DNA of 44,536 bases, taken from contig CAZLVZ010000002.1 of NCBI GenBank assembly GCA_964563465.1, positions 1 to 44,536 of the forward strand, in the 5' to 3' direction. Source of the stretch: an uncultured Candidatus Saccharibacteria bacterium. Lineage in GTDB: Bacteria; Patescibacteriota; Minisyncoccia; Minisyncoccales; PEYH01. This document shows, piece by piece, positions 100 through 31,078 of this stretch (its first letter is position 1; the number at the start of each line of letters is the position of its first letter). A model generated the notes under the pieces. That model saw only the letters and a program-made list of their open reading frames with translations, was not told the origin of the DNA and did not search any database. The translations under genes were made by a program, and so were the position numbers.

Positions 100-437
100 T
101 GGAGGTGGCGAGGATGAACTCGCGTCCAAAAATTATCCCAAAGATAATTCTACAAACTTGTCTCAGTTTTAACTGAACACAGAATCTAAACTGAGCAAAA
201 AATCTGTGCTTTTTAGCCCCTTTTTTCAATAAATTTTCCGGGCTTTTGAAAATTATCAATCTCGCAATATTACGCCAAAATTACTTAGCGAGAATAGGTA
301 ATCTGACGGCATTAAGCGTAAGCCAATGCAGGTTTTTGAAATAAGTTAGCACTTATTTTTTTTCTCAAAGTTTTACGAGATTTGAGAATACTCGGTTTGC
401 TTATCTTGTTCAAATTTCTGTCGAAACTTTCACCCCC
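100..437 (-). ncRNA. ssrA: tmRNA (SsrA), one-piece; encoded tag peptide ANLFQKPALAYA
   Basis: The minus strand reads 5' GGGGGUGAAAGUUUCGACAG ... GGACGCGAGUUCAUCCUCGCCACCUCCA 3'. The acceptor GGGGGUG/CACCUCC contains a G3:U wobble, the alanine identity element. The T-arm is GCGAG/CUCGC. The tag frame GCU AAC UUA UUU CAA AAA CCU GCA UUG GCU UAC GCU UAA lies at 312..350, preceded by an A-rich ...AAUAAGU context typical of resume sites. It lies directly next to smpB. The CCA end is not encoded. Confidence 0.85.
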
Positions 438-879
438 GAATTTTGAGTTCTCTTCTTATTTCTTTTTCTATTGTTCTTTTTTTAAGAACTTCTCTTTTGT
501 CTCTCTTCCCCTTGCTTTTAGCTGTTCCTATTTCAATCTTTATTTTTCCTCGTTGAGTATACACTTTCAAAGGCACTAATGTCAAGCCTTTTTCGCGAGT
601 TTTTCCAATTAAATGCTTAATTTCTGTTTTTTTTAAGAGAAGTTTTCTGCTTCGTTGAGAGTCATAATCTGCTGGAGTGTTCTTTGGTTGATAAGCGGGG
701 ATGTCAGCGTTGAGCAAATATGGCTCTTCGTTTTTAAGCACGACAAAAGAACCGTGTAGATTAGCTCTACCGAGTTTTACTGATTTAACTTCTTGGCCTA
801 ACAATATAATACCAGCTTCAAATTTTTCTAAGATTTGGAAATCATGATAGGCCTTTTTGTTTTTCGTTAATACTTTCAC
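430..879 (-). CDS. smpB: SsrA-binding protein SmpB
   Basis: 149 aa with full-length SmpB-like sequence (KNKKAYHDFQILEKFEAGIILLGQEVKS...RKLLLKKTEI..., basic C-tail). It is adjacent to the tmRNA. Confidence 0.95.
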   Translation of the reverse strand: MKVLTKNKKAYHDFQILEKFEAGIILLGQEVKSVKLGRANLHGSFVVLKNEEPYLLNADIPAYQPKNTPADYDSQRSRKLLLKKTEIKHLIGKTREKGLTLVPLKVYTQRGKIKIEIGTAKSKGKRDKREVLKKRTIEKEIRRELKIRG

Positions 880-1842: not shown

Positions 1843-2472
1843 ATGAGCATTAAAACAAAGCTTATTCTTTACATAGTTGCTTTAGTTGCGATAAGTTCCC
1901 TTATCTTTTCTTTGTTTTTTCTTTCTAAATTAAGCCATTTAACAAAAGAAGCGCTCACAAGTCTTGATGCTCAGAATATAATGCTTCAAGGAGGATGTAT
2001 TGTTGGCTTGATTATTATTTTAGGTTTTTTAATTTCATTTTTTTTGACCAAACGACTAATTGATCCAATTGAATTATTTATTGAAAGCACAAGTAAAATT
2101 GCCGAAGGGGATTTAGATTATCAGCTTCAGATAAAAAAGGATGATGAGCTTGGACGATTGGCGAAAAATTTTAATCAAATGACTAAAAGTTTAAAAAAAT
2201 CTCGCAAAGAACTGGAGCAAGCAAGAGATGTTTTAGAGGTAAAAGTCAAAGCAAGGACAATGGAGTTACAAGAGCAAGCAAAGGGACTTGATGAACAAGT
2301 TAAAGAGAGGACAAAAGAATTACAAGAAAGAATAGATGAATTGGAAAGATTCCATAGATTGACCGTTGGCAGAGAATTAAGAATGATTGAATTAAAGCAA
2401 ATGATTCAGGAGCTTGAAAATAGTAAAGAGTTAACCGGTAAAAAGAAATTGACGGAAAAAAAGAAGAAGTGA
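1843..2472 (+). CDS. Membrane HAMP-domain / coiled-coil protein with no output domain
   Basis: It has two predicted TM helices and a HAMP-like segment (LIDPIELFIESTSKIAEGDLDYQLQIKKDDELGRLAKNFNQMTKSL). A long heptad-rich coiled coil follows (ARTMELQEQ...ERTKELQERIDELERFHRLTVGRELRMIELK). Confidence 0.7.
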   Translation: MSIKTKLILYIVALVAISSLIFSLFFLSKLSHLTKEALTSLDAQNIMLQGGCIVGLIIILGFLISFFLTKRLIDPIELFIESTSKIAEGDLDYQLQIKKDDELGRLAKNFNQMTKSLKKSRKELEQARDVLEVKVKARTMELQEQAKGLDEQVKERTKELQERIDELERFHRLTVGRELRMIELKQMIQELENSKELTGKKKLTEKKKK

Positions 2473-3314
2473 AGATGAAAAAGATTTATGTTATTAATTT
2501 AAGAGGCGAAAAGGAGCCGTTTTCTTTGAAAAAGGTTTTTAATAGTGCGCGTAGAGCCGGGGCTTCAGAAAAGTTAGCACAAGAGATTGCTTCGAAGATT
2601 CGAGATCAGGCATTTCCTGGAATTAAAACTTCAGAAATTTTTAAAAAAGTAAAAAAATTTCTTAGAGAAACAGACAAAAAATCGGGACTCCGTTTTGGAT
2701 TGAAAGAAGCGATAAGAAAATTAGGTCCAAGCGGTTTTCCTTTTGAAAAATATACAAGCGAAATTTTTGCGAACCAAGAATTTAAAATTTTACTGAATCA
2801 AAAGATTAGGGGTAAATACGCCATACACGAGATTGATTTTTTAGCAAAAAAAGATAAATTGCTTTATGTAAGCGAATGTAAATTTAGACAACGAGCAGGA
2901 GAGAGAATTGATTTATCAATAGTATTAATGGTGTGGGCTCGATTTTTAGACCTGAATCAAGGCAATTATTTCAAAAAATTTACAGAATATACAATAAAAC
3001 CAATTATTATTACCAATGCCAAATTTACCTCTCAAGCCATAAGATATTCTAATGGAATGGGAATAGAACTATTGGGATGGAATTATCCTAAAAATAGAGG
3101 ATTGGAAAGAATAATTGAGAACAAAAAACTCTATCCAATTACTATTCTGCCATCCTTAACAAATTATTTAATGGGAATTTTTTCTTCTCAAAAAATGATG
3201 TTGGTAAAAGATATTTTAAATCTTGACCTTAAAATATTTTCTAAAAAGACAAAAATTAAAGAGAGCAAAATTTTACCTTTGGTTGAAGAAGCAAAGATTT
3301 TATTAAGAGATTGA
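2469..3314 (+). CDS. ATP-cone domain fused to a PD-(D/E)xK (Mrr-like) restriction-endonuclease-fold domain
   Basis: The N-terminus is ATP-cone-like (IYVINLRGEKEPFSLKKVFNSARRAGASEKLAQEIASKI). The centre reads HEIDFLAKKDKLLYVSECKF, giving D...ExK. The GTG at 2469 overlaps the TGA of the upstream gene (GTGA); an alternative ATG lies at 2475. Confidence 0.65.
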   Translation: MKMKKIYVINLRGEKEPFSLKKVFNSARRAGASEKLAQEIASKIRDQAFPGIKTSEIFKKVKKFLRETDKKSGLRFGLKEAIRKLGPSGFPFEKYTSEIFANQEFKILLNQKIRGKYAIHEIDFLAKKDKLLYVSECKFRQRAGERIDLSIVLMVWARFLDLNQGNYFKKFTEYTIKPIIITNAKFTSQAIRYSNGMGIELLGWNYPKNRGLERIIENKKLYPITILPSLTNYLMGIFSSQKMMLVKDILNLDLKIFSKKTKIKESKILPLVEEAKILLRD

Positions 3315-3467: not shown

Positions 3468-4052
3468 ATGAAAAAAGGTGATTATATTTCAACAATTTTG
3501 CGTTCAGAAAAGACGGTTTTTTCTTTTAAAGACATAGTTTTGTTGTGGGGAGATTCTGGTAATGCGGCTAGGGTAAGGATCAATTATTATTTGAAAAATA
3601 ACGATCTTTATCGTATTCGTCAGGGAATCTACGCCAAAGATAAAAATTACGATAAGTTTGAGTTGGCTACCAGAATATTTACTCCCGCTTATGTAAGCTT
3701 GGAAACGATTCTGGGTCAGAATGGCATTACATTTCAATATTATGGTCAAATTTTCGTTGCCTCTTATCTAACAAGAGAAATAAAAATTGATGGTCAGAAA
3801 TATTCGTATAGAAAAATAAAAGATTCTATTTTAACCAATAGTGTTGGGATAAAAAATAGAGATAACTGCTCTATGGCTACCCCAGAGAGAGCTTTTTTAG
3901 ATGTTCTTTATTTAAATAAAGATTATTATTTTGATAATTTGTCTGGATTAAATTGGGAAAAAGTTTTTGAAATTCTTCCTGTTTATGAAGGCAATAAGCG
4001 TATGGAAAGAAGGGTCAAGGAACAATATAAAGAATTTAAAACTAAAGAGTAA
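3468..4052 (+). CDS. AbiEi-like (type IV TA antitoxin family) protein
   Basis: It shows the AbiEi pattern (RIRQGIYA..., TPAYVSLETILGQNGI, ATPERAFLDVLYL). It sits 6 nt upstream of an AbiEii-like gene. Confidence 0.65.
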   Translation: MKKGDYISTILRSEKTVFSFKDIVLLWGDSGNAARVRINYYLKNNDLYRIRQGIYAKDKNYDKFELATRIFTPAYVSLETILGQNGITFQYYGQIFVASYLTREIKIDGQKYSYRKIKDSILTNSVGIKNRDNCSMATPERAFLDVLYLNKDYYFDNLSGLNWEKVFEILPVYEGNKRMERRVKEQYKEFKTKE

Positions 4053-4058
4053 TTCTAT

Positions 4059-4757
4059 ATGAGTTTATACACAGCGAGACACAAAAATTTGCTTCTCCAA
4101 ATTCTTAAAGATATTTATTCCGACACGAAAATATCTCCGTTTTTAGGATTTAAGGGTGGCACCGCCGCTTATCTTTTCTATGGTTTGCCTCGTTTTTCTG
4201 TCGATTTGGATTTTGACTTGCTTGACAGAACGAAAGAAGAATTTGTTTTTTTGAAGGTAAAAGAAATTGTTAAGAAATATGGAAAAATGAAAGATGCAAA
4301 GAAAAAAAGATTTAATCTTTTTTTCCTCGTTTCGTATGAAGAGAAAGCTCAAAATATTAAAATTGAGATTAATCGTAGAGCATTTGGTTCCCAATATGCG
4401 CTAAAAACGCATTTGGGAATTTCGATGTTGGTGATGGAAAAAGAAGATATGTTTGCCCATAAACTGATGGCGATGTATGAAAGGATGGGTAAAGCCAATC
4501 GTGACATTTACGATGTTTGGTTTTTTCTTAAAGAAAATTGGCCAGTAAACAAAAATATGGTTGAAGAAAGATCGGGAATGACTTTTAAAATTTTTTTACA
4601 GAAATGTATTCTTTCTTTAAAAAAAATGGAAAATTACAATATTTTAGATGGGATGGGGGAAGTTTTAAGCGAAAAGCAAAAAATCTGGGCCAAAGAAAAT
4701 TTATTAAAAGATATTTTATTTCTACTAAAATTAAAACTTAGCGAATATACTGGATAG
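4059..4757 (+). CDS. Nucleotidyltransferase, AbiEii/AbiGii toxin family
   Basis: It carries the N-terminal signature LGFKGGTAAYLFYGLPRFSVDLDFDL. Its size (232 aa) and its position after an AbiEi-like gene fit the family. Confidence 0.8.
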   Translation: MSLYTARHKNLLLQILKDIYSDTKISPFLGFKGGTAAYLFYGLPRFSVDLDFDLLDRTKEEFVFLKVKEIVKKYGKMKDAKKKRFNLFFLVSYEEKAQNIKIEINRRAFGSQYALKTHLGISMLVMEKEDMFAHKLMAMYERMGKANRDIYDVWFFLKENWPVNKNMVEERSGMTFKIFLQKCILSLKKMENYNILDGMGEVLSEKQKIWAKENLLKDILFLLKLKLSEYTG

Positions 4758-4759
4758 AC

Positions 4760-6484
4760 ATGACTAAAAAGGAAATTACAAAATACATAAAGAAAGCGGT
4801 TAAGGTGGCGCAAAAGGAAGAAAAACTTCCTCATTTTGATATGCATCAGGTATTAGTTGAGTTTTCAGACAGAGAAGAACACGGCGATTACTCTACTAAT
4901 ATTGCCTTATTGATTGGCAAGAAAATTAAAAAGAATCCGATGGAAGTGGCAGAAATTTTGGTCGAACAGCTAAAGTGCGTTTGCGATGGGGAGGGTCGTA
5001 TTGAGGCGGTAGAACCGGGATTTATAAATTTTTGGCTGACAGAAAAGGAATTATTAGATTCCCTACAAAGAGCATTACAAGAAAAGAGCAGATACGGATC
5101 AGATCACGAAAACAGAACAATGGTTATAGATTATTCTGCCCCAAACATTGCAAAGCCATTTGGAGTTGGACATTTGCGTTCAACTATTATTGGTCAAGCG
5201 ATTTATAACATTTATGAATTTTTGGGTTGGAAATGTATTGGTGATAATCATTTAGGTGATTGGGGCACTCAATTTGGTAAACTCATCGTTGCTATAAAAA
5301 AATGGTGGAAAAAAGATTTAAAAGAATTGACGATTGCAGAATTAGAGAAGTTATATGTAAAATTTCATAAAGAGAGCGAAGGAAATGAAGGGCTATTAGA
5401 CGAAGCAAGAGATTGGTTTAAAAAACTTGAACAAGGAGACAAAGAAGCCGAGACAGTATGGAAGATTTGTGTGGATGTAAGTTTAAAAGAATTTGACAGC
5501 GTCTATAAAATTTTAGGAATAGAAATAGACAATGCTATAGGAGAAAGTTTCTATAGAGATAAAACGAAGGCAATTATTGAAGATGCAAAAAAAAGAAAGA
5601 TAGCTAAACAGAGTCAAGGGGCTTTGATTGTTCCTCTTCCTGATATAAAAGTGCCCTTAATGCTTTTGAAATCAGATGGAGCAACCACATACGAGACGAG
5701 AGAAATGGCAACCATAAAATATCGCGAGGAGAAATGGAATCCGGATTTGATTATATGGGAAGTTGGAGCAGACCAAACATTTCATTTCCAGAAATCTTTT
5801 TCAGCAGCAGAAATACTTGGTTATGGGAATAAAGACAAATTTATTCATGTCGCCCATGGTTTGATTAGATGGCCGCATGGTAAATTTTCCACCAGAAAAG
5901 GAGACACGATTCATCTAAAAGACATATTAGAAGAAGCGATAGAAAGGGCAAAAAAAATTCTTGATAAATCTGGAATAATTAAAGGTATCCCAGAAAAAGA
6001 AAAGCAAGAGATAGCCAAGCAAGTTGGCATTGGTGCAATTAAATACAATGATTTGTCGCGTCATTATTCTCGGGACATAATATTTGATTGGGAGAAAATT
6101 CTATCTCTTAACGGAAATTCGGGTCCATATCTTCAATATACTGCCGTGCGTTGTCAGAGTGTAATTGATAAAGCAGAATCTAACCCTTTTCTTTTTAACG
6201 AAAATATCGTAGGATTTAATCAAGAAGAAATGGCGATTTTACGAACTATTTATAGATTTCCGGAAATCGTTAAACAAGCAGGGAATAGTTTCTCGCCAAA
6301 TTTAGTTTGTAACTTTGCTTTTGATTTAGCGCAAAAATATAATATTTTTTACGAGAAGAATTCGATTATAAAAGCAGGGAATAACGAGAGAAGAAATTTT
6401 CGCTTATCTCTTACAATGGCAACAAGACAAATTTTAGAAAATAGTTTGAAATTATTAGGAATTTCTATTCCTGAAAAAATGTAA
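4760..6484 (+). CDS. argS: Arginine--tRNA ligase
   Basis: 574 aa with class I motifs (PNIAKPFGVGHLRST), an anticodon-binding C-terminus, and the typical terminal ...EKM. Confidence 0.95.
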   Translation: MTKKEITKYIKKAVKVAQKEEKLPHFDMHQVLVEFSDREEHGDYSTNIALLIGKKIKKNPMEVAEILVEQLKCVCDGEGRIEAVEPGFINFWLTEKELLDSLQRALQEKSRYGSDHENRTMVIDYSAPNIAKPFGVGHLRSTIIGQAIYNIYEFLGWKCIGDNHLGDWGTQFGKLIVAIKKWWKKDLKELTIAELEKLYVKFHKESEGNEGLLDEARDWFKKLEQGDKEAETVWKICVDVSLKEFDSVYKILGIEIDNAIGESFYRDKTKAIIEDAKKRKIAKQSQGALIVPLPDIKVPLMLLKSDGATTYETREMATIKYREEKWNPDLIIWEVGADQTFHFQKSFSAAEILGYGNKDKFIHVAHGLIRWPHGKFSTRKGDTIHLKDILEEAIERAKKILDKSGIIKGIPEKEKQEIAKQVGIGAIKYNDLSRHYSRDIIFDWEKILSLNGNSGPYLQYTAVRCQSVIDKAESNPFLFNENIVGFNQEEMAILRTIYRFPEIVKQAGNSFSPNLVCNFAFDLAQKYNIFYEKNSIIKAGNNERRNFRLSLTMATRQILENSLKLLGISIPEKM

Positions 6485-6513: not shown

Positions 6514-9500
6514 ATGGAAGTAGGGCGTTCAAAATCAGAGGAAAAAATAGCGAAATTCTGGAAAGAGAATCAAGTCTTTGAAAAATCTTTAAATAAAAAA
6601 GGTGGTGATTTTGTTTTTTATGAAGGTCCGCCAACCGCCAATGCTAAACCAGGGGTCCATCATGTTTTAACCCGAGCATTTAAGGATATAATTTGTAGAT
6701 ATCAAACAATGCAGGGTAAAAGAGTTTTAAGAAAAGCTGGGTGGGATGTTCATGGTTTACCAGTGGAATTAGCCGTAGAAAAAAGCTTGGGATTAAAGAA
6801 TAAAAAAGACATTGAAGAATACGGAATAGATAAATTCAATCAAAAATGTAAAGAATCAGTTTGGGAACACGCCAAAGAATGGGGAGACCTTACAGAAAGA
6901 ATCGGTTTTTGGTTGGATTTAAAGAATCCGTACATTACCAGCGATCCTCTTTATATGGAGAGTATTTTTAACATTATTAAACAAATATCAAATAAGGGTT
7001 TACTCTATCAAGATTACAAGGTGGTCCCTTATTGTCCGCGATGCGGAACGGTTCTTTCTTCTCACGAAGTTGCACAAGGATATAAGAAAATAAAAGAGAA
7101 TGCTGTTTATGTAAAATTTGAGATTAAAAACAAAAAATTTAAGGCAAATACATTTTTGCTTGTCTGGACAACCACACCTTGGACATTACCTGCCAACATA
7201 GCAATAGCTGTAAATCCAAAAATTGAATATATTTTAGTAAAAATCAATAAAGAATATTTGATTATCGCTAAAAAAAGACAAGAAATTTTAGAAGATAATT
7301 TTGAGATTATAAAAGAGTTTAAGGGAGAAGACTTGGTTGGTCTTCAATATAAACCGATATTTAAAAAAGATGTGATTGTTTTGCCGAAGAATACAAAAAA
7401 CGCATATCAGATTCTTCCCGCAGACTTTGTTACAACCCAAGAGGGAACGGGTTTAGTTCATATTGCACCCGCTTTCGGTCAAGACGATATGGAATTGATA
7501 AAGACGGAAAACGAGAAACAAAAAAAAGAAAGTGATAAATTTCCGATTTTACTGATAGTGGACAAAGAAGGAAAATTTACCGTAGAAGTCAAAAAATGGA
7601 AAGGGATGTTTGTCAAAGACGCAGATTCATTGATCATTAAAGAACTCAAAAATACTAATCGTTTATTTAAACAAGAAAAATACGAGCACGACTATCCCTT
7701 TTGTTGGAGATGCGACACTCCCCTTTTGTACTATGCTAAAAAGAGTTGGTTTATTAAAGTGAAAGATATTAAGCAAAAATTAATTGAAAATAATCAAAAG
7801 ATTAATTGGTTGCCAGAGCATATAAAAGAGGGTAGGTTCGGAGAATGGTTGAGAGAATTAAAAGATTGGGCATTGTCGCGGGAAAGATATTGGGGGACGC
7901 CCTTACCAGTATGGAAGTGTGAGCATTGCGATCATCAAGAGGTTATAGGGGGCAGAGAGGATTTAAAAAAACAAAAATTTAGCACTAATCAATATTTTGT
8001 TTTAAGACACGGAGAGTCAACTTCAAATGTTGAAGAATTTTATTGTTCTTGGCCCGAACCTAAAAAATCTTTATTAACACAAAAAGGAGAATTTCAAATT
8101 AATGAAATTATTGAAAAAATCAAGAATGAAAAAATAGATATAATATTTTCTTCTGATATTTTAAGAACTTCGCAAACGGCGGAGCTTGTAGCCAAAGCAT
8201 TGGGCAAGAAAGTAAAATATGATATTCGTCTACGCGAGATTGATATGGGGATTTTTAATGGTAAAGACCTTCAACGAGGAAGAGAGTTTTTTAATTCAGA
8301 GGTTAAGCTTAGCGCGAAAGAAGTCTTTTTAAATAAATTTAATAATGGATTCAGTGAAGGGGAAAATTTTTCTGAAGTTAAAATGAGGGTTTTAGATTTT
8401 TTAAAAAAGATTGACAAAAAATTTAAAAATAAAAATATTCTAATTGTAAGTCACGAATTGCCAATTTTAATGTTAAAAAGTGCGTTATTAGGATGGACTA
8501 ACGAGGAAATGGCTGAACACAGAAAGGACATTTCTACTTCAACTGGGTCGTTTGCAAAAATTGAATTTAAAATTTTTCCATATAATCAAAAAGGAGAACT
8601 TGATTTTCATCGGCCATATATTGATGAAGTTCAGTTTTTGTGTCCAAAATGTGGCAAAGCAATGGAAAGAGTTCCTGAAGTAATTGATTGTTGGTTTGAT
8701 TCTGGTTCAATGCCATTCAGTCAAAGACATTGGCCATTTAGTGACCAATCATCAAAAATTAATAATTATTCAATTCCACCCGAATTATTTCCTGCTGATT
8801 ATATTAGTGAAGCGGTGGATCAAACAAGGGGATGGTTTTATACATTACTTGCCATTTCTTCTTTACTCGGATTTGAGTCTCCATACAAGAGCGTTGTTGT
8901 TCTGGGACATGTTTTAGACAAAAATGGTCAAAAAATGTCAAAGTCAAAAGGTAATGTAGTGGATCCATGGGAGATGATTGAAAAATATGGAGCAGATGCT
9001 CTTCGTTGGTATTTTTATACTATCAATCAGCCGGGAGATTCTAAACTTTTCTCTGAAAAGGATTTAGACCAAAGATTAAAGAAGTTTATTATGACATTTT
9101 GGCATTGCTTTACATTTTGGAAAATGTATGAGCAAACAGTAGAAAATAAATCAGCAGAGATAGACAGCCAGAACGTGCTAGACAAATGGATTTTATCTAA
9201 ACTTAATGGTTTAGTTGGAGATACAACAAAAAAATTAGACAAATATGATATTACGGGTGCAGCTCGAGAAATAGAATCTTTTGTAATTGACGACTTGTCT
9301 TTATGGTATATTAGGCGTTCAAGAAAAAGATTTCAAAGACCCGATTCACAAAAAGAAATAGAGCAAGCTTATTCTGTTTTACGGCATACGCTTTTAGTTT
9401 TATCAAAACTAACAGCCCCATTTATACCGTTTGTGAGCGAAGAGATTTATCTTGAAGTTATGAATAAAAAAGATAAATTAAGCGTCCATTTAGATGATTG

Positions 9501-10050
9501 GCTCAAGTTTGACGAAAAACTTATTAATAAAACATTAGAACAGAAGATGGATACAGTAAGAGGGATAGTCAGCGAAGGGCTTAAGATTAGAAGCGACAAT
9601 TCTATTAAAGTTAGACAACCATTGAATACTTTAAAAGTTAGGAGCGAAAAGCTTAATAAAGGATTGCTTGCTTTAATTCAAGAAGAACTCAATGTAAAAA
9701 ATATTGAATTTAAGGAAGATGCTACAAAGCAAGAACATTGGAAATTGGAATATGATTTAAAGATTACGCCTGAATTGCAAAACGAAGGAATGATTCGTGA
9801 AGTGGCGCGTCAAATTCAAGATATGAGAAAGAAAGCTAATTGTAGCCCAGAAGATAAGGTTGTAATTTATTGTGATGGAAATAAAGATTTTGTGAACCTA
9901 TTAAATCACAACAAAGAATTGATTTTGTCGCAAACCCGCGCAAAAGATTTTATTTCTCAAAGAAAAGAAAAAGAAATATTTAATATTGAAAGAGAGATTA
10001 AAATTAATAATCAAGAACTTTGGTTAGGACTAAAAATTGTAGTAAGATGA
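6514..10050 (+). CDS. ileS: Isoleucine--tRNA ligase (type 2-like) carrying a nested extra domain
   Basis: Motifs seen: PPTANAKPGVHHVLTRAFKD, the CP1 editing block TTTPWTLPANIAIAVNP, KMSKSKGNVVDP, and the zinc knuckle C469xxC472 / C710xxC713. The 1178-aa length is inflated by an insertion of about 200 aa. Confidence 0.95.
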   Translation: MEVGRSKSEEKIAKFWKENQVFEKSLNKKGGDFVFYEGPPTANAKPGVHHVLTRAFKDIICRYQTMQGKRVLRKAGWDVHGLPVELAVEKSLGLKNKKDIEEYGIDKFNQKCKESVWEHAKEWGDLTERIGFWLDLKNPYITSDPLYMESIFNIIKQISNKGLLYQDYKVVPYCPRCGTVLSSHEVAQGYKKIKENAVYVKFEIKNKKFKANTFLLVWTTTPWTLPANIAIAVNPKIEYILVKINKEYLIIAKKRQEILEDNFEIIKEFKGEDLVGLQYKPIFKKDVIVLPKNTKNAYQILPADFVTTQEGTGLVHIAPAFGQDDMELIKTENEKQKKESDKFPILLIVDKEGKFTVEVKKWKGMFVKDADSLIIKELKNTNRLFKQEKYEHDYPFCWRCDTPLLYYAKKSWFIKVKDIKQKLIENNQKINWLPEHIKEGRFGEWLRELKDWALSRERYWGTPLPVWKCEHCDHQEVIGGREDLKKQKFSTNQYFVLRHGESTSNVEEFYCSWPEPKKSLLTQKGEFQINEIIEKIKNEKIDIIFSSDILRTSQTAELVAKALGKKVKYDIRLREIDMGIFNGKDLQRGREFFNSEVKLSAKEVFLNKFNNGFSEGENFSEVKMRVLDFLKKIDKKFKNKNILIVSHELPILMLKSALLGWTNEEMAEHRKDISTSTGSFAKIEFKIFPYNQKGELDFHRPYIDEVQFLCPKCGKAMERVPEVIDCWFDSGSMPFSQRHWPFSDQSSKINNYSIPPELFPADYISEAVDQTRGWFYTLLAISSLLGFESPYKSVVVLGHVLDKNGQKMSKSKGNVVDPWEMIEKYGADALRWYFYTINQPGDSKLFSEKDLDQRLKKFIMTFWHCFTFWKMYEQTVENKSAEIDSQNVLDKWILSKLNGLVGDTTKKLDKYDITGAAREIESFVIDDLSLWYIRRSRKRFQRPDSQKEIEQAYSVLRHTLLVLSKLTAPFIPFVSEEIYLEVMNKKDKLSVHLDDWLKFDEKLINKTLEQKMDTVRGIVSEGLKIRSDNSIKVRQPLNTLKVRSEKLNKGLLALIQEELNVKNIEFKEDATKQEHWKLEYDLKITPELQNEGMIREVARQIQDMRKKANCSPEDKVVIYCDGNKDFVNLLNHNKELILSQTRAKDFISQRKEKEIFNIEREIKINNQELWLGLKIVVR
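7981..8595 (+). other. Histidine-phosphatase (PGAM-like, branch 1) domain inserted within ileS (about aa 490-694)
   Basis: The family motifs occur in order: YFVLRHGESTSN, LTQKGEFQ, FSSDILRTSQTAE, REIDMGIFNG, GENFSEV, ILIVSHELP. The region is flanked by the two CxxC halves of the IleRS zinc knuckle, and the reading frame is continuous. Confidence 0.7.
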
Positions 10051-12164: not shown

Positions 12165-13490
12165 ATGGAGGATTTAATGCAAAAAATTATTTCTTTATGT
12201 AAGAGACGAGGATTTATTTTTCCATCTTCGGAAATTTATGGAGGATTTAATTCCAGTTATGATTTTGGTCCACTTGGAGTTGAATTAAAAAGAAACATCA
12301 AAAAAGAATGGTGGAAAGATATGCTTCAATGCCACGAGAATATCGTTGGTTTAGACGCCTCTATTTTAATGTCTCCACAGGTTTGGAATGCATCGGGACA
12401 CTTGTCAGCTGGCTTTGCAGACGAATTAGTAGAATGTAAACAATGTCATAAACGGTTTAGATTAGATGGGATTGAGAATAATAAATGTCCCGAATGTGGA
12501 GGTGATTTGACCAAGCCAAAGCAATTTAACTTAATGATGAAGACATTCATTGGTTCCTTGGAAGATGAAAGTGCGGTTGCTTACTTAAGACCAGAAACAT
12601 GTCAGGGAATTTATGTTAATTTCAAAAATGTTTTAACTACGAGTCGTTCTAAGTTGCCATTTGGTATCGCGCAAATCGGTAAGGCGTTCCGTAACGAAAT
12701 TACTACCAAGAATTTTATTTTCCGTACTCGAGAATTTGAGCAAATGGAAATGCAATGGTTTTGCGATCCAGAAGAAGCAAATAAATGGTTTGATTATTGG
12801 AAAGAAGAACGACTAAAATGGTATTTGGATTTAGGCGTTGATAAAAAGAATTTAAAGATGACAGAAATTCCAGAAGGAGAACGAGCCCATTACGCTCAAA
12901 GACAGATTGACTTAGAATACAAATTCCCATTTGGCTGGCAGGAAATTGAAGGAATTCATAATAGAGGTGATTGGGACTTGTCTCGACATAGTAAATTTAG
13001 CAAAGAAGATTTGAAATACAAGGATTTAAAAACAGAAAAAGAATATATTCCTCACATTATTGAAACATCGGTTGGAGTTGAGAGAAGTTTGTTGGCTTTT
13101 TTGACCGAGGCATACCAAGAAGTATCTGGAGGTAGAACAAAAACAACCGAATCTACGAAAGCATCAGAGACAGTATTAAGGTTCCATAAAAAATTAGCTC
13201 CGATTAAAATCGCTGTTTTTCCCTTAGTAAAAAATAAACCAAAATTGGTTAAGAAAACAAAAGAAATTTACCAATTACTTAAACAAGATTTTATGTGTCA
13301 ATATGACGAGCAGGGTTCAATCGGACGCCGTTACCGTCGTCAAGACGAGCAAGGCACGCCTTTTTGTGTCACAGTTGACTTTGACACCTTAGAAGATAAA
13401 TCTGTCACCATCCGCGATCGTGACACGATGAAGCAAGAGAGAATAAAAATAGATAATCTCATTGATTATCTAAAGCAAAAATTCGATTAA
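12165..13490 (+). CDS. glyQS: Glycine--tRNA ligase (dimeric class II type)
   Basis: Motifs seen: RRGFIFPSSEIYGGFNSSYDFGPLGVELKRNIK, the Cys-rich insert CKQCHKRF...CPECGG, and the C-terminal anticodon-binding domain. Confidence 0.95.
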   Translation: MEDLMQKIISLCKRRGFIFPSSEIYGGFNSSYDFGPLGVELKRNIKKEWWKDMLQCHENIVGLDASILMSPQVWNASGHLSAGFADELVECKQCHKRFRLDGIENNKCPECGGDLTKPKQFNLMMKTFIGSLEDESAVAYLRPETCQGIYVNFKNVLTTSRSKLPFGIAQIGKAFRNEITTKNFIFRTREFEQMEMQWFCDPEEANKWFDYWKEERLKWYLDLGVDKKNLKMTEIPEGERAHYAQRQIDLEYKFPFGWQEIEGIHNRGDWDLSRHSKFSKEDLKYKDLKTEKEYIPHIIETSVGVERSLLAFLTEAYQEVSGGRTKTTESTKASETVLRFHKKLAPIKIAVFPLVKNKPKLVKKTKEIYQLLKQDFMCQYDEQGSIGRRYRRQDEQGTPFCVTVDFDTLEDKSVTIRDRDTMKQERIKIDNLIDYLKQKFD

Positions 13491-14194: not shown

Positions 14195-14632
14195 ATGAAC
14201 ACAAAAAGAGACTTAAATAAACATAAAGCAGTGACAAATCTCTACTCCGTAACTGATTGGGAGTATCATAAAGGGAAAGTTACATGGGATGATCTTTTTG
14301 ATGAAAAAGGGAAATTTTTTTTGACCATAGGAACGATGGAAATGGCAGAAGAGGACGGATTTTTACCTGACTATATTGGTAAAAAGAGAGAACCTTTTCC
14401 TAAAAGAATTTTTATTCAAGAAAAAGACAAAACATGGACTGTTTATGAAAACCTAAAACACTTTACTCCAGAGAAAGTTCAAGAATTACTTGATGATTTG
14501 GGTAAATTAACTGAAAAGATATTCGTTTTTAAATATAAAATTGTTCCAGAATGGTGGAAGCGCCGGTTGACAAAAATGGAGAAGGAAATTGAAGGAGGAA
14601 AATTGATACCTCTCAAAAAGTTGCGTCCGTAG
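14195..14632 (+). CDS. Hypothetical protein
   Basis: A 145-aa ORF, charged, with no recognisable motif. Confidence 0.45.
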   Translation: MNTKRDLNKHKAVTNLYSVTDWEYHKGKVTWDDLFDEKGKFFLTIGTMEMAEEDGFLPDYIGKKREPFPKRIFIQEKDKTWTVYENLKHFTPEKVQELLDDLGKLTEKIFVFKYKIVPEWWKRRLTKMEKEIEGGKLIPLKKLRP

Positions 14633-14725: not shown

Positions 14726-15058
14726 ATGAAGCCAGATAAATATATGGAGTCAGAAAACAAAAACTTAAAGTTACCATCATTTTTTAAGCCATTGCTTTGG
14801 TCTTATAATTTTTTTCTAATAGATCCGAAAAAAAATAAGAAAAGAATTATTATTAACACAGTCAATTATGGTAGATGGAAACACTTGCAATGGATAGTGA
14901 AATTTTATGGCAGAAATAAGCTGAAAAAGATAATTGAAGAAACTCCCGAGACAGAATTTAGGGTCCCTGCGTTGAAACTCGTCTCTTTATTATTGGGAAT
15001 TAAAAAAATGAAATATGCATCAAGAAGTGATTACATCAAAAGGCAAAATAATTCTTGA
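14726..15058 (+). CDS. DUF6922-like small protein, partner of the downstream AbiEii-like gene
   Basis: The pattern LLWSYNFFLIDPKKNKKRIIINTVNYGRWKHLQWIVKFYGRNKLKKII matches the LFWD..d......iI.rvl..G......l...YG motif I recall upstream of AbiEii-like genes. A TTGAAA-17-TATAGT promoter-like pair lies just upstream. Confidence 0.5.
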   Translation: MKPDKYMESENKNLKLPSFFKPLLWSYNFFLIDPKKNKKRIIINTVNYGRWKHLQWIVKFYGRNKLKKIIEETPETEFRVPALKLVSLLLGIKKMKYASRSDYIKRQNNS

Positions 15059-15632
15059 TCGACTTGATAAATTCCCTGATTTTTATTTGGCAGGCGGGAC
15101 AGGGCTGGCCTTACAATTGGGTCACAGAATCTCAGTTGATTTTGATTTTTTTTGGCAGGAAGATATTCCGAAAGAATTACTTTCAAAAATAAGGAAAGTT
15201 TTTAAGGGATGCAGAATTGAAATAGTTGTTAATCGTTTAGCGCAACTAACCGTAGAAATTGATGGAGTGATGATTTCTTTTGTGAAGTATCCTTTCCCAG
15301 TATTTTCAAGACTCATTGATTATAAAGGAATTAAAATTTTGTCTCCCATAGGAATTGCGGCAATGAAAGCGTTCGCGTTAGGAGGAAGGGCTACTTTAAA
15401 GGATTATGTAGATTTATATTTTATTTTAAAGGAAAAGACTGTCGCTTTGGAAGAAATTATTGCTTTATGCGATAAAAAATATGGAAATGAATTCAATCAG
15501 AGATTGTTTTTGGAAGAGTTGGTTTACTCAAAAGACATAGAAGAAATAGAGATAAATTTTTTGAAAGAGAAAGTAGGAAAAATAGCAATAGAGGATTTTT
15601 TTGAGAAAGAGGTCAAAAAAATAAAAATTTAA
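15015..15632 (+). CDS. Nucleotidyltransferase, AbiEii/AbiGii-like (short form)
   Basis: It carries FYLAGGTGLALQLGHRISVDFDFF near the N-terminus. It is 205 aa and overlaps the upstream partner by 44 nt. Confidence 0.7.
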   Translation: MHQEVITSKGKIILDRLDKFPDFYLAGGTGLALQLGHRISVDFDFFWQEDIPKELLSKIRKVFKGCRIEIVVNRLAQLTVEIDGVMISFVKYPFPVFSRLIDYKGIKILSPIGIAAMKAFALGGRATLKDYVDLYFILKEKTVALEEIIALCDKKYGNEFNQRLFLEELVYSKDIEEIEINFLKEKVGKIAIEDFFEKEVKKIKI

Positions 15633-18984: not shown

Positions 18985-19662
18985 ATGTCAGAAATTTTTA
19001 TTATTGCCACTCCAATTGGGAATCTTGAGGACTTATCATTTCGCGCCCTAAGAATACTCAAATGGGTTGATTTTGTTTTATGCGAGGACACAAATGTGAC
19101 AAGAAAATTATTGAATCATTACGATATCAAAACTTCAGTTATTAGCTACCATCAGCATTCAAAGATTGGAAAGATAAATTATATTTTAAAGCTTTTAGGG
19201 CAGGGTAAAAATTTAGCGATTGTTTCTGATGCCGGTACGCCAGGAATTTCTGATCCAGGCAATAAATTGATAGAAGAAGTAATAAAAACATTTGAAGATG
19301 ATGTGAAAATTATACCTGTTCCAGGGCCTTCTGCGGTTTCTACAATCGCTTCTGTTGCCGGATTAGCAATGGATAGATTCTTATTTTTAGGTTTTCCGCC
19401 TAAAAAAAGAAAGAGAAAAAAGTTCTTTCAAGAAGCAATAATTTCCGAATACCCAGTTGTTATTTATGAATCTTGTCATCGTATTTTAAAAACACTTAAA
19501 GAATTGCAGGAACTGAACAATAATCTGCAATTAGTAGTAGGTAGAGAATTGACTAAAAAATTTGAAACAATTTATCGCGGTCAAATTGACAAAGTGATAG
19601 AAAGAATAGAAAAAGATAAAGTAAAGGGCGAATTTGTAGTTATTATAAAGAACAATGAATAA
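18985..19662 (+). CDS. rsmI: 16S rRNA (cytidine1402-2'-O)-methyltransferase
   Basis: Motifs seen: ATPIGNLEDLSFRALRIL, CEDTNVTRKLL, VSDAGTPGISDPG. Confidence 0.9.
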   Translation: MSEIFIIATPIGNLEDLSFRALRILKWVDFVLCEDTNVTRKLLNHYDIKTSVISYHQHSKIGKINYILKLLGQGKNLAIVSDAGTPGISDPGNKLIEEVIKTFEDDVKIIPVPGPSAVSTIASVAGLAMDRFLFLGFPPKKRKRKKFFQEAIISEYPVVIYESCHRILKTLKELQELNNNLQLVVGRELTKKFETIYRGQIDKVIERIEKDKVKGEFVVIIKNNE

Positions 19663-21094
19663 AAGTACTAAAAAATTCTATATTTCCAGCGCTCTTCCAT
19701 ATGTTAATTCTGTTCCTCATCTTGGTTTTGCCTTGGAGATTGTTCAGGCAGATGTTCTTGCCCGCTATCACAGAAACTTGGGTGAGGAAGTTTTCTTTTT
19801 GACTGGTACAGACGAGAATGGCTTGAAAGTTGCTCGAGCCGCAGAAGAAGCGGGCGTGGAAGTTGGAAAATTTGCCGAACAAAACGCGAAGAAATTTCAA
19901 GGATTAAAACAAATTCTTAATTTGTCTTTTGATGATTTTATTCGAACAACCGAAGAAAGACATATCAAAGCAGTTAAAAAATTATGGCAGCTTTGCGAAA
20001 AAGATATTTACAAAAAAAAATATAAGGGACTTTATTGCGTTGGTTGCGAACAATTTTACAAGAAGGAAGAATTGGTTGATGGTTTATGTCCTGAACATAA
20101 AACAAAATTAGAATTGGTAGAAGAAGAAAATTATTTTTTTAAACTTTCAAAATACGAAAAACAGCTTAGAGAATTAATAGAAAGCGATGCTATCAAAATA
20201 ATCCCGGGATCTCGGAAAAACGAAGTAATAGGCTTTCTTAATAAAGGATTGGAAGATATTTGTATCTCTCGTTCTACTGAACGGGCGCGTGGTTGGGGGA
20301 TTGATGTGCCAGGAGATAAAACACAAAAGATTTGGTGTTGGTGGGACGCTGTGATCAACTATATTAGTGCGCTTGGTTATGGTGTAAATGACAAAAGATT
20401 TCAAGAATGGTGGCAGAATAATGATAATAAGCTACACATTATCGGGAAAGGAATACTTGTCTTCCATACCTTATATTGGCCCGCCGCATTGCTTTCTGCT
20501 GGGTTATCGTTACCAAATAAATTATTTGTTCATGGGTACTTGAGTATTAAGGGTGAAAAAATTTCAAAATCATTAGGCAATGTTATAGATCCCTATGGAT
20601 TAGTAGAACAATACGGAGCTGATGCTGTTCGATATTTTCTTTTGAGAGAAATTTCAAGCACAAAAGATGGCGATTTTACTATTGAAAAATTTAAGGAAAG
20701 ATATAATAGCGACTTGGCAAAAGGACTCGGGAATCTTATTGCGCGGGTGTTAAAGCTGGCTCAAGAACAAGACCAGGAATTAAAAATTCAGAACCAGGAA
20801 TTAAAAACTCAAATTAATAAAACAAGAGGAGACCATAAGAAGGCCTTAGATAATTTTCAATTTGATACTGCCTTAAAATCAATTTGGGAGTTGATTGGGT
20901 TTTGTGATAAGTATATAGAAAAAGAGAAACCATGGGAAGATACAGAAAATAAATCATCAATTATTAATGATTTATTATTGGCAATTAAAGAAATTGCTAA
21001 ATTACTTGAACCATTTTTACCCGAAACCTCCGAGAAAATCTCTGAACAGTTAAAAACCAAAAAATCCGAACCATTATTTCCGCGTCTTAAATAG
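19655..21094 (+). CDS. metG: Methionine--tRNA ligase (short form, no C-terminal tRNA-binding domain)
   Basis: Motifs seen: ALPYVNSVPHLGFALE, the zinc knuckle CVGCEQF...CPEH, and KISKSLGN. Confidence 0.95.
   Translation: MNKSTKKFYISSALPYVNSVPHLGFALEIVQADVLARYHRNLGEEVFFLTGTDENGLKVARAAEEAGVEVGKFAEQNAKKFQGLKQILNLSFDDFIRTTEERHIKAVKKLWQLCEKDIYKKKYKGLYCVGCEQFYKKEELVDGLCPEHKTKLELVEEENYFFKLSKYEKQLRELIESDAIKIIPGSRKNEVIGFLNKGLEDICISRSTERARGWGIDVPGDKTQKIWCWWDAVINYISALGYGVNDKRFQEWWQNNDNKLHIIGKGILVFHTLYWPAALLSAGLSLPNKLFVHGYLSIKGEKISKSLGNVIDPYGLVEQYGADAVRYFLLREISSTKDGDFTIEKFKERYNSDLAKGLGNLIARVLKLAQEQDQELKIQNQELKTQINKTRGDHKKALDNFQFDTALKSIWELIGFCDKYIEKEKPWEDTENKSSIINDLLLAIKEIAKLLEPFLPETSEKISEQLKTKKSEPLFPRLK
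20771..20812 (+). repeat. In-frame 2 x 21-bp tandem duplication inside metG (DQELKIQ/NQELKTQ)
   Basis: The units GACCAGGAATTAAAAATTCAG and AACCAGGAATTAAAAACTCAA match at 18/21 positions. Confidence 0.7.
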
Positions 21095-26242: not shown

Positions 26243-26533
26243 ATGACCATAGAAACCATAGCTCGAAAATTAAAAACTACGCCACAAGCACTGCTCAAAG
26301 AAAGCGTTTTTGCGTATTTGCAAAGACGGCTTAATACTGTTTCTATCGAGATAGATGGCCTGAAAGGGAAATGGCAGGTTAAGTCAGCTGAGGATTTTGA
26401 GAAAGCTATAAAAGATGGGAAAATTCATGAGTTCTCTAAAGGACAAGACGCTAGTGAAGATTTTTTTCGGCTCTCTCATATAGAAGAAGAAAAAAGACAT
26501 CTCTTAAAACTTGTTAGGGAATATGCGTTCTGA
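26243..26533 (+). CDS. Hypothetical small protein, putative partner (antitoxin-like) of the downstream DUF6516-like gene
   Basis: A 96-aa ORF that overlaps the next gene. No motif was recognised. Confidence 0.5.
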   Translation: MTIETIARKLKTTPQALLKESVFAYLQRRLNTVSIEIDGLKGKWQVKSAEDFEKAIKDGKIHEFSKGQDASEDFFRLSHIEEEKRHLLKLVREYAF

Positions 26534-26903
26534 TTATCTTCCAATCTTTGAGCTCGCCGAGGCAGAATTTTCTGAAATTATCGTAAGCTTTAAAGATTTA
26601 GAGCATAAAATAAGATTTTATTTAATTGACAATAGTTATATTGATGTATGTCTGGGCGGTCCGAGATTTTCGGGTCGTTTTAGTTTTCACTGGGAAAGAG
26701 GGCACATTGACGGCAGGATTTATCGTTATGACAATTTTCCCAACACCAAATGGAAAAAATTAGAGTCGTTTCCTTTTCATTTCCATAATGGTTCTCAAAA
26801 TCGGGTAATTGAGGCAAAATTTTCCAAGAGACCATTAAATGGTTTTAGGGATTTTATGGAATGGATAAGGGGTTTTGTCGCAAGGCAAAAAAACAAAAAA
26901 TAA
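26511..26903 (+). CDS. DUF6516 / TumE-like toxin-antitoxin-system protein
   Basis: FSFHWERGHIDGRIYRYDNFPNTKWKKLESFPFHFHNG matches the family core as I recall it (..HWe....i.RyDN.ph......fPhH.H). An alternative ATG at 26523 overlaps the upstream stop. Confidence 0.6.
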   Translation: MLGNMRSDYLPIFELAEAEFSEIIVSFKDLEHKIRFYLIDNSYIDVCLGGPRFSGRFSFHWERGHIDGRIYRYDNFPNTKWKKLESFPFHFHNGSQNRVIEAKFSKRPLNGFRDFMEWIRGFVARQKNKK

Positions 26904-30157: not shown

Positions 30158-31078
30158 ATGAAAAAGGTTAGGGCATTAGTTTTGTTTTCTGGGGGATTGG
30201 ATTCTATATTGGCAACTAAGCTTTTGATGGAGCAGGGAATTAAAGTAGAAGGACTGACCCTTAAGAGTTGTTTTTGGAAGACAGATTATGCGAAAGAGGC
30301 ATCTAAAAAACTTGGTATTAAATTGAAAATAGTTGATTTTTCAAAGGAGCATTTGAAAATGATAAAATGCCCGAAACACGGATATGGCAAAAATATGAAT
30401 CCTTGTATTGACTGTCACTCTTTAATGTTCAAGATTGCTAAGAGCATTATGCAAAAGGAAAATTTTGATTTTGTCGCCACAGGCGAAGTTTTGGGAGAAC
30501 GGCCAATGTCTCAGAACAAGAACTCCTTAGAATTAATAGAAAAAGAATCTGGCCTAATCGGACATCTTCTACGGCCATTATCAGCAAAATTATTAGAATC
30601 AACAGAAATAGAGAAAAAAGGATTAGTAGATAGAGAAAAACTATTAGACATTAGAGGTAGGTCAAGGAAAAAACAATTAACATTAGCAAAAAAATGGAAA
30701 ATTAAAGATTACCCCACACCGGCTGGAGGATGTCTTCTAACGGATCCCGAGTTTAGTAAAAGATTAAGAGAGCTACTTGATAAATATCCAAAAATATTAG
30801 AAAATGATATTAAGCTTTTAAAGATTGGTCGTCATTTTTGGAATAAAGGCAATAAAATTATTGTTGGGAGAAATCATAAAGAAAATTTAGCGATAAAGAG
30901 ATTAAGACAGAAAAACGATGTCTTGATTGAACTTCAAGGATTGACCGGACCAACGACTTTGGTGAGGAATTATGGAAAGAAGATTTCCAAAGAACTGATT
31001 AAAAAAGCAAAAGATCTTACAAAATATTATTCGCTTAAAGCGAGAGCTAAAAAAGATTTAAAATTTAAAATATTTTAA
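30158..31078 (+). CDS. PP-loop ATP pyrophosphatase, ThiI/MnmA-like tRNA sulfurtransferase family
   Basis: Motifs seen: the SGGLDS PP-loop, NPCIDCH, ATGEVLGERPMSQ and LLRPL, as in the ThiI catalytic domain. No THUMP domain was seen. Confidence 0.55.
   Translation: MKKVRALVLFSGGLDSILATKLLMEQGIKVEGLTLKSCFWKTDYAKEASKKLGIKLKIVDFSKEHLKMIKCPKHGYGKNMNPCIDCHSLMFKIAKSIMQKENFDFVATGEVLGERPMSQNKNSLELIEKESGLIGHLLRPLSAKLLESTEIEKKGLVDREKLLDIRGRSRKKQLTLAKKWKIKDYPTPAGGCLLTDPEFSKRLRELLDKYPKILENDIKLLKIGRHFWNKGNKIIVGRNHKENLAIKRLRQKNDVLIELQGLTGPTTLVRNYGKKISKELIKKAKDLTKYYSLKARAKKDLKFKIF

Follow-up and report, generated by a model that had tools for sequence, protein, structure and literature searches.

The CP1 domain and the leucine-specific domain are nested modules of class Ia aminoacyl-tRNA synthetases, and extra domains of synthetases have repeatedly exposed new biology, namely editing, signalling and complex assembly. 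An isoleucyl-tRNA synthetase (IleRS) equipped with an acetyltransferase domain is already recognised by NCBIfam, so that enzyme-bearing IleRS are a known kind. The 44,536-nt stretch of DNA analysed here as a whole (contig CAZLVZ010000002.1, positions 1 to 44,536, assembly GCA_964563465.1 of an uncultured Candidatus Saccharibacteria bacterium; hereafter the window) contains an ileS gene (6514..10050, plus strand, stop codon included), whose open reading frame (ORF) codes for a type-2 IleRS (IleRS2) of 1178 aa with a histidine phosphatase of branch 1 (His_Phos_1) nested within it (aa 487–694; 7972..8595, plus strand). The phosphatase is attached specifically and repeatedly to IleRS, as a gene abutting ileS, as a domain nested at three different sites, and in double copies; it is not attached to leucyl-tRNA synthetase (LeuRS). 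We consider it likely, for the explanation taken as a whole, that the gene encodes the working type-2 IleRS of the organism together with a catalytically competent phosphatase, and that both enzymes form one functional unit in which the phosphatase is an accessory dedicated to IleRS.

The reading frame of ileS is continuous and uninterrupted across the insert. The ileS equivalog profile TIGR00392 of NCBIfam scored 904.3 bits on the window protein (cutoff, 621.4 bits), and its match and that of the Pfam domain tRNA-synt_1 are each broken in two around the phosphatase. By alignment, the closest solved relative is the IleRS2 of Priestia megaterium (8c8w; E = 4.6e-256), with residues 7–486 of the query pairing with residues 12–476 of the chain, and residues 695–1085 pairing with residues 485–868. 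Thus, about 208 residues stand in place of about 8, which sets the boundaries of the insert to aa 487–694. A first-pass annotation of this DNA, made from the sequence alone, had placed the insert at 7975–8600, in good agreement with the tblastn coordinates 7972–8595; its description of a 1178-aa IleRS was likewise confirmed from the ORF, with all quoted motifs at the places given. The synthetase itself was judged to be intact, and indeed the motif PGVHHV, the CP1 block and KMSKS are present, and the synthetase body of the predicted model superposes on solved IleRS2 with template-modelling (TM) scores of 0.77–0.86, normalised to the target (Foldseek).

The first half of the catalytic core lies in the N-terminal part of the enzyme (aa 1–486; 6514..7971, plus strand; tRNA-synt_1 stretch 12–491), together with the CP1 editing domain, which is matched by the structures 1wk8 and 1wny at aa 189–395, and with the connective peptides as far as the first CxxC of the zinc knuckle. 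The C-terminal part (aa 695–1178; 8596..10050, plus strand) consists of the second half of the catalytic core with the motifs WFDSG and KMSKS, the latter at aa 807–811 (nt 8932–8946) and invariant in relatives, the anticodon-binding domain (Anticodon_1, aa 890–1038), and the type-2 C-terminal domain (DUF5915 of Pfam, aa 1079–1173; 56.6 bits at a threshold of 27). The insert belongs to the last connective peptide of the enzyme and lies between the two CxxC halves of its zinc knuckle, i.e. C469/C472 in WKC469EHC472 (7918..7929, plus strand), both invariant in 120 close homologues, and C710/C713 in FLC710PKC713 (8641..8652, plus strand), located by a motif check. Knuckle cysteines are missing in a sizeable minority of diverged IleRS, whether insert-bearing or not (P0012, P0170, P0204, P0261 and others), and C469 is still a cysteine in 52 of 75 insert-bearing representatives. 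Since these residues are lost with or without the insert, zinc binding at the knuckle appears to be dispensable.

The class I signature of the window protein is the non-canonical G47-V-H49-H50 (6652..6663, plus strand; motif PGVHHV, aa 46–51), in which G47, H49 and H50 are invariant among 50 relatives. It represents the described G/AXHH variant and counts as the HIGH motif in its IleRS2 form; the G/AXHH motif confers mupirocin hyper-resistance in IleRS2 (Brkic et al. 2023, PMC10485003). The window protein did not reach the cutoffs of the acquired mupirocin-resistance enzymes MupA/MupB (NF000257 and NF000258; 838–839 bits, as compared to 1900), and a second ileS was not found within the 44-kb window. 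Other phosphatase-bearing IleRS (P0204, P0208, P0261 and others) have the canonical signature HYGH. The signature of a single sequence of a Magasanikbacteria cluster (P0235) reads HYGS, the fourth-position histidine of HIGH seemingly being replaced by serine.

The identity of the insert is clear from its Pfam match. In the full protein, PF00300 matches aa 495–669 with E = 3.5e-33 and 115.3 bits at a gathering score of 21.7, and the excised segment gave E = 1.5e-34 and 119.8 bits, the envelope extending over aa ~490–686. The phosphatase motifs follow each other in the order YFVLRHGESTSN (aa 494–505), LTQKGEFQ, FSSDILRTSQTAE (aa 545–557), REIDMGIFNG (aa 574–583), GENFSEV (aa 616–622) and ILIVSHELP (aa 642–650). 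Retention of the catalytic positions, as proposed previously, was verified in the 120 close homologues and in about 72 aligned insert-bearing cluster representatives that are more diverged. R498 and the predicted phospho-acceptor H499 of the RHG motif (8005..8010, plus strand) are present in 120/120 and 72/72 sequences, respectively, and the glycine of this motif, G500, is kept in 117 of the 120 close homologues. R551, the second arginine of the phosphate pocket (SSD.LR..QTA block; 8164..8166, plus strand), is conserved in 120/120 and 71/72, and the second conserved histidine H647 (ILIVSH motif; 8452..8454, plus strand) in 120/120 and 72/72 sequences. The predicted general acid/base E575 (8236..8238, plus strand), which we take to correspond to Glu89 of dPGM, is either Glu or Asp in all of the close homologues (96 and 24 sequences, respectively); the diverged set has 69 Glu, 3 Asp and one Pro.

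Purifying selection acts on the intact domain just as strongly as on the synthetase. The ratio of nonsynonymous to synonymous substitution (dN/dS), calculated for seven pairs whose synonymous distances (dS) are not saturated, was 0.07–0.17 for the insert and 0.06–0.14 for the rest of the IleRS, which is in line with the earlier view of a functional domain rather than one in decay, its activity being predicted. The AlphaFold2 (AF2) model of the excised domain has a predicted local distance difference test (pLDDT) score of 91.1, as expected for a segment that folds autonomously. The full-length model has an overall pLDDT of 83.5 and reaches its highest confidence over the insert and its junctions (88–97), the latter being ordered. 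The top fold match of the AF2 model is PspA of Hydrogenobacter (4ij5; TM 0.80, Foldseek probability 1.00), which also ranks first by sequence among solved proteins (E = 3.7e-14), followed by mycobacterial glucosyl-3-phosphoglycerate phosphatase (GpgP), a riboflavin-pathway histidine phosphatase, CobC, and PhoE (1h2e; TM 0.76).

Characterised subfamilies, namely dPGM, PspA, CobC, GpmB, SixA, RNase H/acid phosphatase and MutT1, were considered as possible identities and rejected, as the insert stays far under all of their NCBIfam cutoffs. It did not reach those of the PspA phosphoserine phosphatase (NF045917; 82–86 bits, cutoff 350), dPGM_arch (NF038349; 86.3 bits, cutoff 225), TIGR01258 (29.8 bits, cutoff 81.7), the CobC alpha-ribazole phosphatase (TIGR03162; 78–82 bits, cutoff 162.9) and the SixA phosphohistidine phosphatase (TIGR00249; 23.3 bits, cutoff 74.5). 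The second-best NCBIfam match was RNase H/acid phosphatase (NF005567; 86 bits, cutoff 326), and MutT1 (NF052459) scored 15 bits at a cutoff of 475. Judged by profile scores and predicted fold, the insert is a generic PhoE/PspA-like member of branch 1 without assignable substrate, and the caution of the first-pass annotation, which had called any substrate speculative, is upheld. A second His_Phos copy was not found in the window by tblastn.

A survey of IleRS homologues from NCBI, JGI, ENA and Logan assemblies revealed the combination of PF00133 and PF00300 in all of the 120 best full-length homologues (54–72% identical, 1124–1236 aa). In an exhaustive search, the insert was present in 88 of the best 150 cluster representatives at the 50%-identity level, down to an overall identity of 38%. 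The pairing of phosphatase and IleRS, found in hundreds of related species, occurs in Paceibacteria-type groups, Magasanikbacteria and Peregrinibacteria. At the zinc-knuckle site (site A), '...VIGS.xEL.K' precedes the domain and '(F/L)P.(N/D)..G.LD.HRPYID' follows it; in relatives free of the insert, a few residues bridge the two motifs. IleRS2 comes in two deeply diverged flavours, 'PPTAN...GVHH', to which the window protein belongs, and 'PPFATGLPHYGH', and the junction is the same in both. A single origin of the insert-bearing IleRS was considered as well, but the neighbour-joining tree of the synthetase core, which has no support values and gave 25 parsimony changes, is too poorly resolved to sustain it. 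The IleRS of Candidatus Campbellbacteria L055 (1139–5197) has a length of 1353 aa; besides the site-A phosphatase, it contains about 200 additional residues without a Pfam match, located in the part of the editing-domain region that corresponds to aa ~250–450 of the window protein. Extra Pfam domains were found neither in this protein nor in the other overlong IleRS P0217, P0223, P0229, P0214, P0195 and P0183. An apparent second IleRS in L060 turned out to be a different class Ia synthetase, with 26–30% identity.

The phosphatase also occurs as a separate gene. Free-standing homologues of 178–212 aa, found in Nealsonbacteria and relatives, are 33–46% identical to the insert and match it end to end, from 'MKLNNKYYLLRHG' through the C-terminal 'GELRKLN'; two of them, P0008 and P0019, are encoded directly upstream of insert-free ileS genes (products of 977 and 952 aa, respectively). 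With each GTDB species represented by a single genome, a pattern scan retrieved at least 599 stretches, of which at least 483 encode relatives, and the best 80 loci were analysed. The domain is located inside ileS, at the same site as in the window, in 61 of these 80 loci; at the other 19, an insert-free ileS is directly preceded by a separate phosphatase gene. A phosphatase unlinked to ileS was not observed among the best 80 loci. Gaps between phosphatase gene and ileS range from –40 to +21 nt at 17 of these 19 standalone loci, five of which show an overlap of 4 nt.

The genes are part of a conserved block, consisting of smpB (minus strand), argS, the phosphatase gene where present, ileS, a surface protein gene and a class II synthetase gene. 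In 19 of 21 standalone loci, argS and ileS directly flank the phosphatase ORF (e.g. in the order argS, His_Phos, ileS in L001), whereas argS abuts ileS in the nested loci, including the window, where the argS ORF, the upstream synteny partner, spans 4760..6484 (plus strand). Since the block is the same and argS abuts ileS when the domain is nested, both states represent orthologous loci which differ only in the position of the phosphatase coding sequence. Standalone and nested forms interleave in a crude neighbour-joining tree of the domain, calculated without support values, which suggests more than one switch between the two forms. In L002 and L003 (1–5959), argS is replaced upstream of the phosphatase-ileS pair by a defence-like cluster coding for a Fic/RhuM protein, an N6/N4 methylase, a MutH-like nuclease and GmrSD, indicating that the phosphatase remains with ileS despite changed upstream genes.

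Two further insertion sites were identified by BLASTP. Site B corresponds to a loop at aa ~744–756 of the window protein (8743..8781, plus strand), which is disordered in the AF2 model (pLDDT <50). The zinc-knuckle region of P0204 and P0287 is short, and these proteins carry a homologous phosphatase at site B, following 'WFESGSMPYAQRHYPF', at the equivalent of aa 745–756 of the window protein; P0287 is annotated as Candidatus Peregrinibacteria, and site B is that of Peregrinibacteria-type IleRS. Site C (aa about 872–887; 9127..9174, plus strand) is the loop that joins the first two helices of the anticodon bundle (H848–871 and H888–909 in the model), and accommodates the phosphatase of P0190 and a second copy in P0208, the first copy of which resides at site A. 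P0238 has two tandem copies within site A. The full catalytic set is retained in every copy checked, i.e. in those at sites A, B and C, in the tandem and in the free-standing form. A phosphatase fused end to end to the N-terminus was not seen among the IleRS examined. The separate gene, the two additional insertion sites and the double copies make the functional case much stronger than the window sequence alone had done.

The catalytic core of P. megaterium IleRS2 has been defined as residues 40–168 and 513–632 (Brkic et al.). From these boundaries it follows that site A (P. megaterium residues 476–485) belongs to the connective-peptide region right before the core resumes, that site B is located within the second half of the core, and site C just beyond it.

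Additional guest domains accompany the phosphatase in rare cases, each confined to a single cluster. P0271 contains an intact NUDIX box (aa 226–343) near the start of CP1, generically MutT or ADP-ribose-pyrophosphatase-like, and P0261 carries a P-loop kinase-like segment with a Walker A motif at site B (aa ~735–870), which gave only weak matches to kinases (APS kinase, shikimate kinase, Pnkp1; E ~0.02–0.06). Neither of them provides a hint to the substrate. Among homologues of the window LeuRS (23277–25652), embedded domains were detected in P0307, P0310, P0348, P0349, P0308, P0408 and P0405, comprising Ser_hydrolase (PF06821) in four proteins, one of which also contains Abhydrolase_1 (PF00561), NUDIX in two, and a Y1 (IS200-like) transposase domain in one. 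These domain matches suggest that Patescibacteria more widely tend to nest enzyme domains in their class I synthetases. PF00300 was found in none of the 120 closest homologues of the window LeuRS, nor was a phosphatase found in the arginyl- (ArgRS), methionyl- (MetRS), leucyl- or histidyl-tRNA synthetase (HisRS) or another class II enzyme encoded in the window.

The explanation we favour would account for these arrangements as follows. The domain would derive from a phosphatase gene of ~190 codons set between argS and ileS, abutting or overlapping the ileS start as it does in relatives, and in the lineage of the window the phosphatase coding sequence would have moved about 1.45 kb further down, to a position within ileS. 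Phosphatase and IleRS may thus act as a non-covalent pair when encoded by two genes, and as a single polypeptide when the domain is nested. By homology, H499 would become phosphorylated transiently during hydrolysis of a phosphate ester, the phosphate being held by R498, R551 and H647 while E575 serves as acid/base. The anatomy of these proteins suggests a substrate within the IleRS system and not in general metabolism, because a metabolic phosphatase would not be expected to become nested in one synthetase three independent times while never being fused end to end.

As to what the substrate may be, we tentatively propose a protective or repair role, which by analogy is possible though well short of probable: either IleRS itself or tRNA-Ile, at its 3' end, might be freed by the phosphatase of a phosphate that prevents isoleucylation. 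In the former variant, the phosphate would be stripped from an active-site loop, i.e. from the serine of KMSKS; in the latter, it would be stripped from the 3'-terminal adenosine of tRNA-Ile. The kinase toxins HipA and HipT phosphorylate the KMSKS serine of GltX and TrpS, and toxSAS enzymes pyrophosphorylate the CCA ends of tRNAs. A nucleotide by-product or a phosphorylated ligand of IleRS comes next among the substrates to be considered. If the repair role were true, this would be the first aminoacyl-tRNA synthetase with its own phosphatase to reverse damage by toxins or competitors, and it would imply a hitherto unknown class of phosphorylating toxins directed at IleRS or tRNA-Ile in the Patescibacterial world.

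Several observations weigh against a phosphatase dedicated to IleRS and acting on it or on its tRNA. All cutoffs of characterised subfamilies are missed by far, and the fold resembles those of small-molecule phosphatases, which, as far as the model can tell, does not favour a protein or an RNA as substrate. The entire smpB-argS-ileS block is syntenic, so that the adjacency alone could partly reflect inherited gene order. Other class I synthetases of Patescibacteria (LeuRS and IleRS) bear unrelated nested domains and may simply tolerate insertions. No phosphatase is present in or beside ileS at L087 and L088. Of the closest insert-free IleRS, P0159 and P0163 have no phosphatase gene in their vicinity, and the gene of P0158 begins at the end of a contig. 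Since some related IleRS lack the phosphatase, the module must be accessory, and aminoacylation does without it.

On much the same grounds, the insert could be a hitch-hiking metabolic phosphatase, acting on phosphoserine or a sugar phosphate or resembling phosphoglycerate mutase, which was an ancestral neighbour of ileS and later became nested in tolerant loops, so that co-expression would be the sole link between the two enzymes. The nearest solved relatives (PspA, GpgP, CobC, PhoE and the riboflavin-pathway phosphatase) are indeed metabolic, the guests accepted by Patescibacterial class I synthetases include even a transposase, and both the synteny of the whole gene block and the absence of the phosphatase from some related IleRS would fit. 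Nevertheless, we regard this as unlikely: the link to ileS holds at every one of the best 80 loci and survives a change of the upstream neighbour (L002/L003); there are three independent nesting sites as well as double copies; fusion end to end, the outcome to be expected for a neighbouring gene, was not seen at the N-terminus; none of the 120 LeuRS homologues has acquired the domain; and the cutoffs for dPGM, PspA and CobC are missed by far.

A role in the clean-up of by-products appears rather improbable to us. The phosphatase would remove AMP, ADP, pyrophosphate or fragments of diadenosine tetraphosphate (Ap4A), thereby driving the reaction forward or recycling nucleotides in an organism unable to make them. 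The rare co-inserts are nucleotide enzymes (NUDIX in P0271 and the P-loop domain in P0261), with NUDIX also present in LeuRS relatives, and the insertion sites are grouped around the second core half. Mycobacterial MutT1 pairs a NUDIX domain with a histidine phosphatase for nucleotide degradation, and the insert does give a very weak NCBIfam match to the MutT1 family. However, AMP, pyrophosphate and Ap4A are made at all twenty synthetases, so that by-products general to synthetases fail to explain why the phosphatase is tied to IleRS only. Moreover, the NUDIX and P-loop co-inserts are confined to single clusters, and monoesters are the typical substrates of histidine phosphatases.

Natural antibiotics are often directed at IleRS, and the coupling of the phosphatase to this synthetase is accessory and IleRS-specific, which would also be compatible with a defence function, in which the phosphatase inactivates a phosphorylated natural inhibitor and adds to the resistance provided by the GVHH signature of this enzyme; double copies could then increase the capacity. 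We know of no phosphorylated IleRS inhibitor, and the phosphatase also occurs beside IleRS with the canonical HYGH signature, indicating that it is not tied to the resistance motif. Such a function is therefore considered very unlikely.

It is even harder to envisage the insert as a non-catalytic module, i.e. a structural brace, or a sensor of a phospho-ligand that regulates IleRS, with the pocket kept for binding. The ordered junctions and the high model confidence of zinc knuckle and insert would suit a brace, as would the loss of zinc-binding cysteines from some hosts that keep the insert, the domain perhaps replacing the structural role of the knuckle. Conservation is not restricted to the phosphate-binding arginines, though, but extends to the acid/base residue and both histidines; the free-standing form keeps the catalytic set too, and the occurrence of the domain at three different positions argues against a precise structural role.

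The probability that the arrangement is an artefact is negligible: although the G+C content of the insert (0.290) is a little below that of its flanks (0.343 and 0.326), an assembly chimera, a concern of the first-pass annotation, is ruled out because the same architecture recurs in well over a hundred independent assemblies (120/120 closest homologues and 61 species-representative loci), and a decaying pseudogene is ruled out by the continuous frame, the dN/dS of about 0.1, and the confident predicted fold.

Several other genes of the window deserve mention. It is rich in synthetases: besides ileS, it codes for ArgRS (4760–6484), a class II enzyme of 441 aa (12165–13490), a short MetRS of 479 aa (19655–21094), LeuRS (23277–25652) and HisRS (39682–40971). 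Upstream, at 99–437 and 430–879 (both minus strand), a transfer-messenger RNA gene (tag peptide ANLFQKPALAYA) adjoins smpB. The ORF at 2469–3314 shows an unusual pairing of an ATP-cone with weak Mrr-like restriction endonuclease and AF1548-like C-terminal matches, and that at 30158–31078 combines a PP-loop ATPase (tRNA_Me_trans/ThiI-like) with an NFACT-R_2 RNA-binding domain, possibly representing a tRNA-modifying enzyme. Toxin genes of the AbiEii nucleotidyltransferase family (type IV toxin-antitoxin) are located at 4059–4757, directly upstream of argS-ileS, and at 15015–15632; each is preceded by a small ORF without Pfam match (3468–4052 and 14195–14632, respectively) which may code for the antitoxin. 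MenT toxins, which are related to AbiEii, modify the 3' ends of tRNAs. A TumE toxin domain (PF20126, E = 8.7e-12) is encoded at 26511–26903.

Patescibacteria are mostly uncultured organisms with minimal genomes that are thought to live attached to other cells. If the explanation we favour is correct, a phosphoryl-transfer enzyme, foreign to the textbook synthetase cycle, is tied to one synthetase across much of a major bacterial radiation, a pattern which would imply an unrecognised step or hazard in the formation of isoleucyl-tRNA in these organisms. The naturally split version, i.e. the phosphatase gene with an insert-free IleRS, and the fused versions offer a ready comparison, and the domain is small and autonomous with a clear active-site histidine. 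In addition, domain nesting is caught here in its "before" and "after" states at orthologous loci, which is informative on the origin of multi-domain enzymes.

In line with the first-pass annotation, which knew of no precedent, we found no description of the phosphatase-IleRS combination in the literature, including a structural and evolutionary study of IleRS2 (2023, PMC10485003) and a 2026 preprint that annotates the domain architectures of 96,219 IleRS sequences. The architecture is visible in public databases, as precomputed Pfam matches and as a UniRef entry for a Magasanikbacteria protein; the NCBI name of many such proteins is merely "class I tRNA ligase family protein". The host is an ordinary IleRS2 and the guest an ordinary His_Phos_1 domain, and it is the combination that is, as far as we found, new to the literature.

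With the IleRS2 of P. megaterium (8c8u/8c8v/8c8w) and the IleRS of Thermus thermophilus (1ile), the window protein shares a full-length alignment outside the insert, the editing domain, KMSKS, DUF5915 and the location of the zinc knuckle. It differs in the enzyme domain of ~208 residues where P. megaterium IleRS2 has ~8 (476–485), and the structure comparison revealed no solved or described IleRS with a domain at the zinc-knuckle site. The insert resembles PspA of H. thermophilus (4ij5) and PhoE of G. stearothermophilus (1h2e) in size (~190–210 aa), fold (TM 0.76–0.80) and the RHG/Arg/Glu/His set; however, it is only 20–25% identical to PspA, PhoE and CobC, and the Patescibacterial family is tied to ileS, whereas these characterised enzymes are not. 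By its name, the NCBIfam family NF040702 (ileS_w_GNAT) likewise comprises IleRS with an extra enzyme domain, but the guest is a GNAT domain instead of a phosphatase, and the window protein, at 289.7 bits and a cutoff of 1999, is not a member. Branch-1 phosphatases are also joined to nucleic-acid or nucleotide enzymes in RNase H/acid phosphatase (NF005567, Rv2228c type) and MutT1 (NF052459), but those are end-to-end fusions with non-synthetase partners, while the domain in the window is nested. In this respect it parallels the CP1 editing domain and the leucine-specific domain of LeuRS, which are likewise folded domains placed in a loop of the Rossmann-fold catalytic domain, leaving the host fold intact. 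Whereas these modules are ancient and family-wide and act on the aminoacyl ester or the tRNA, the phosphatase brings in phosphoryl-transfer chemistry and is an optional feature of a single phylum, where it is also encoded by a gene of its own.

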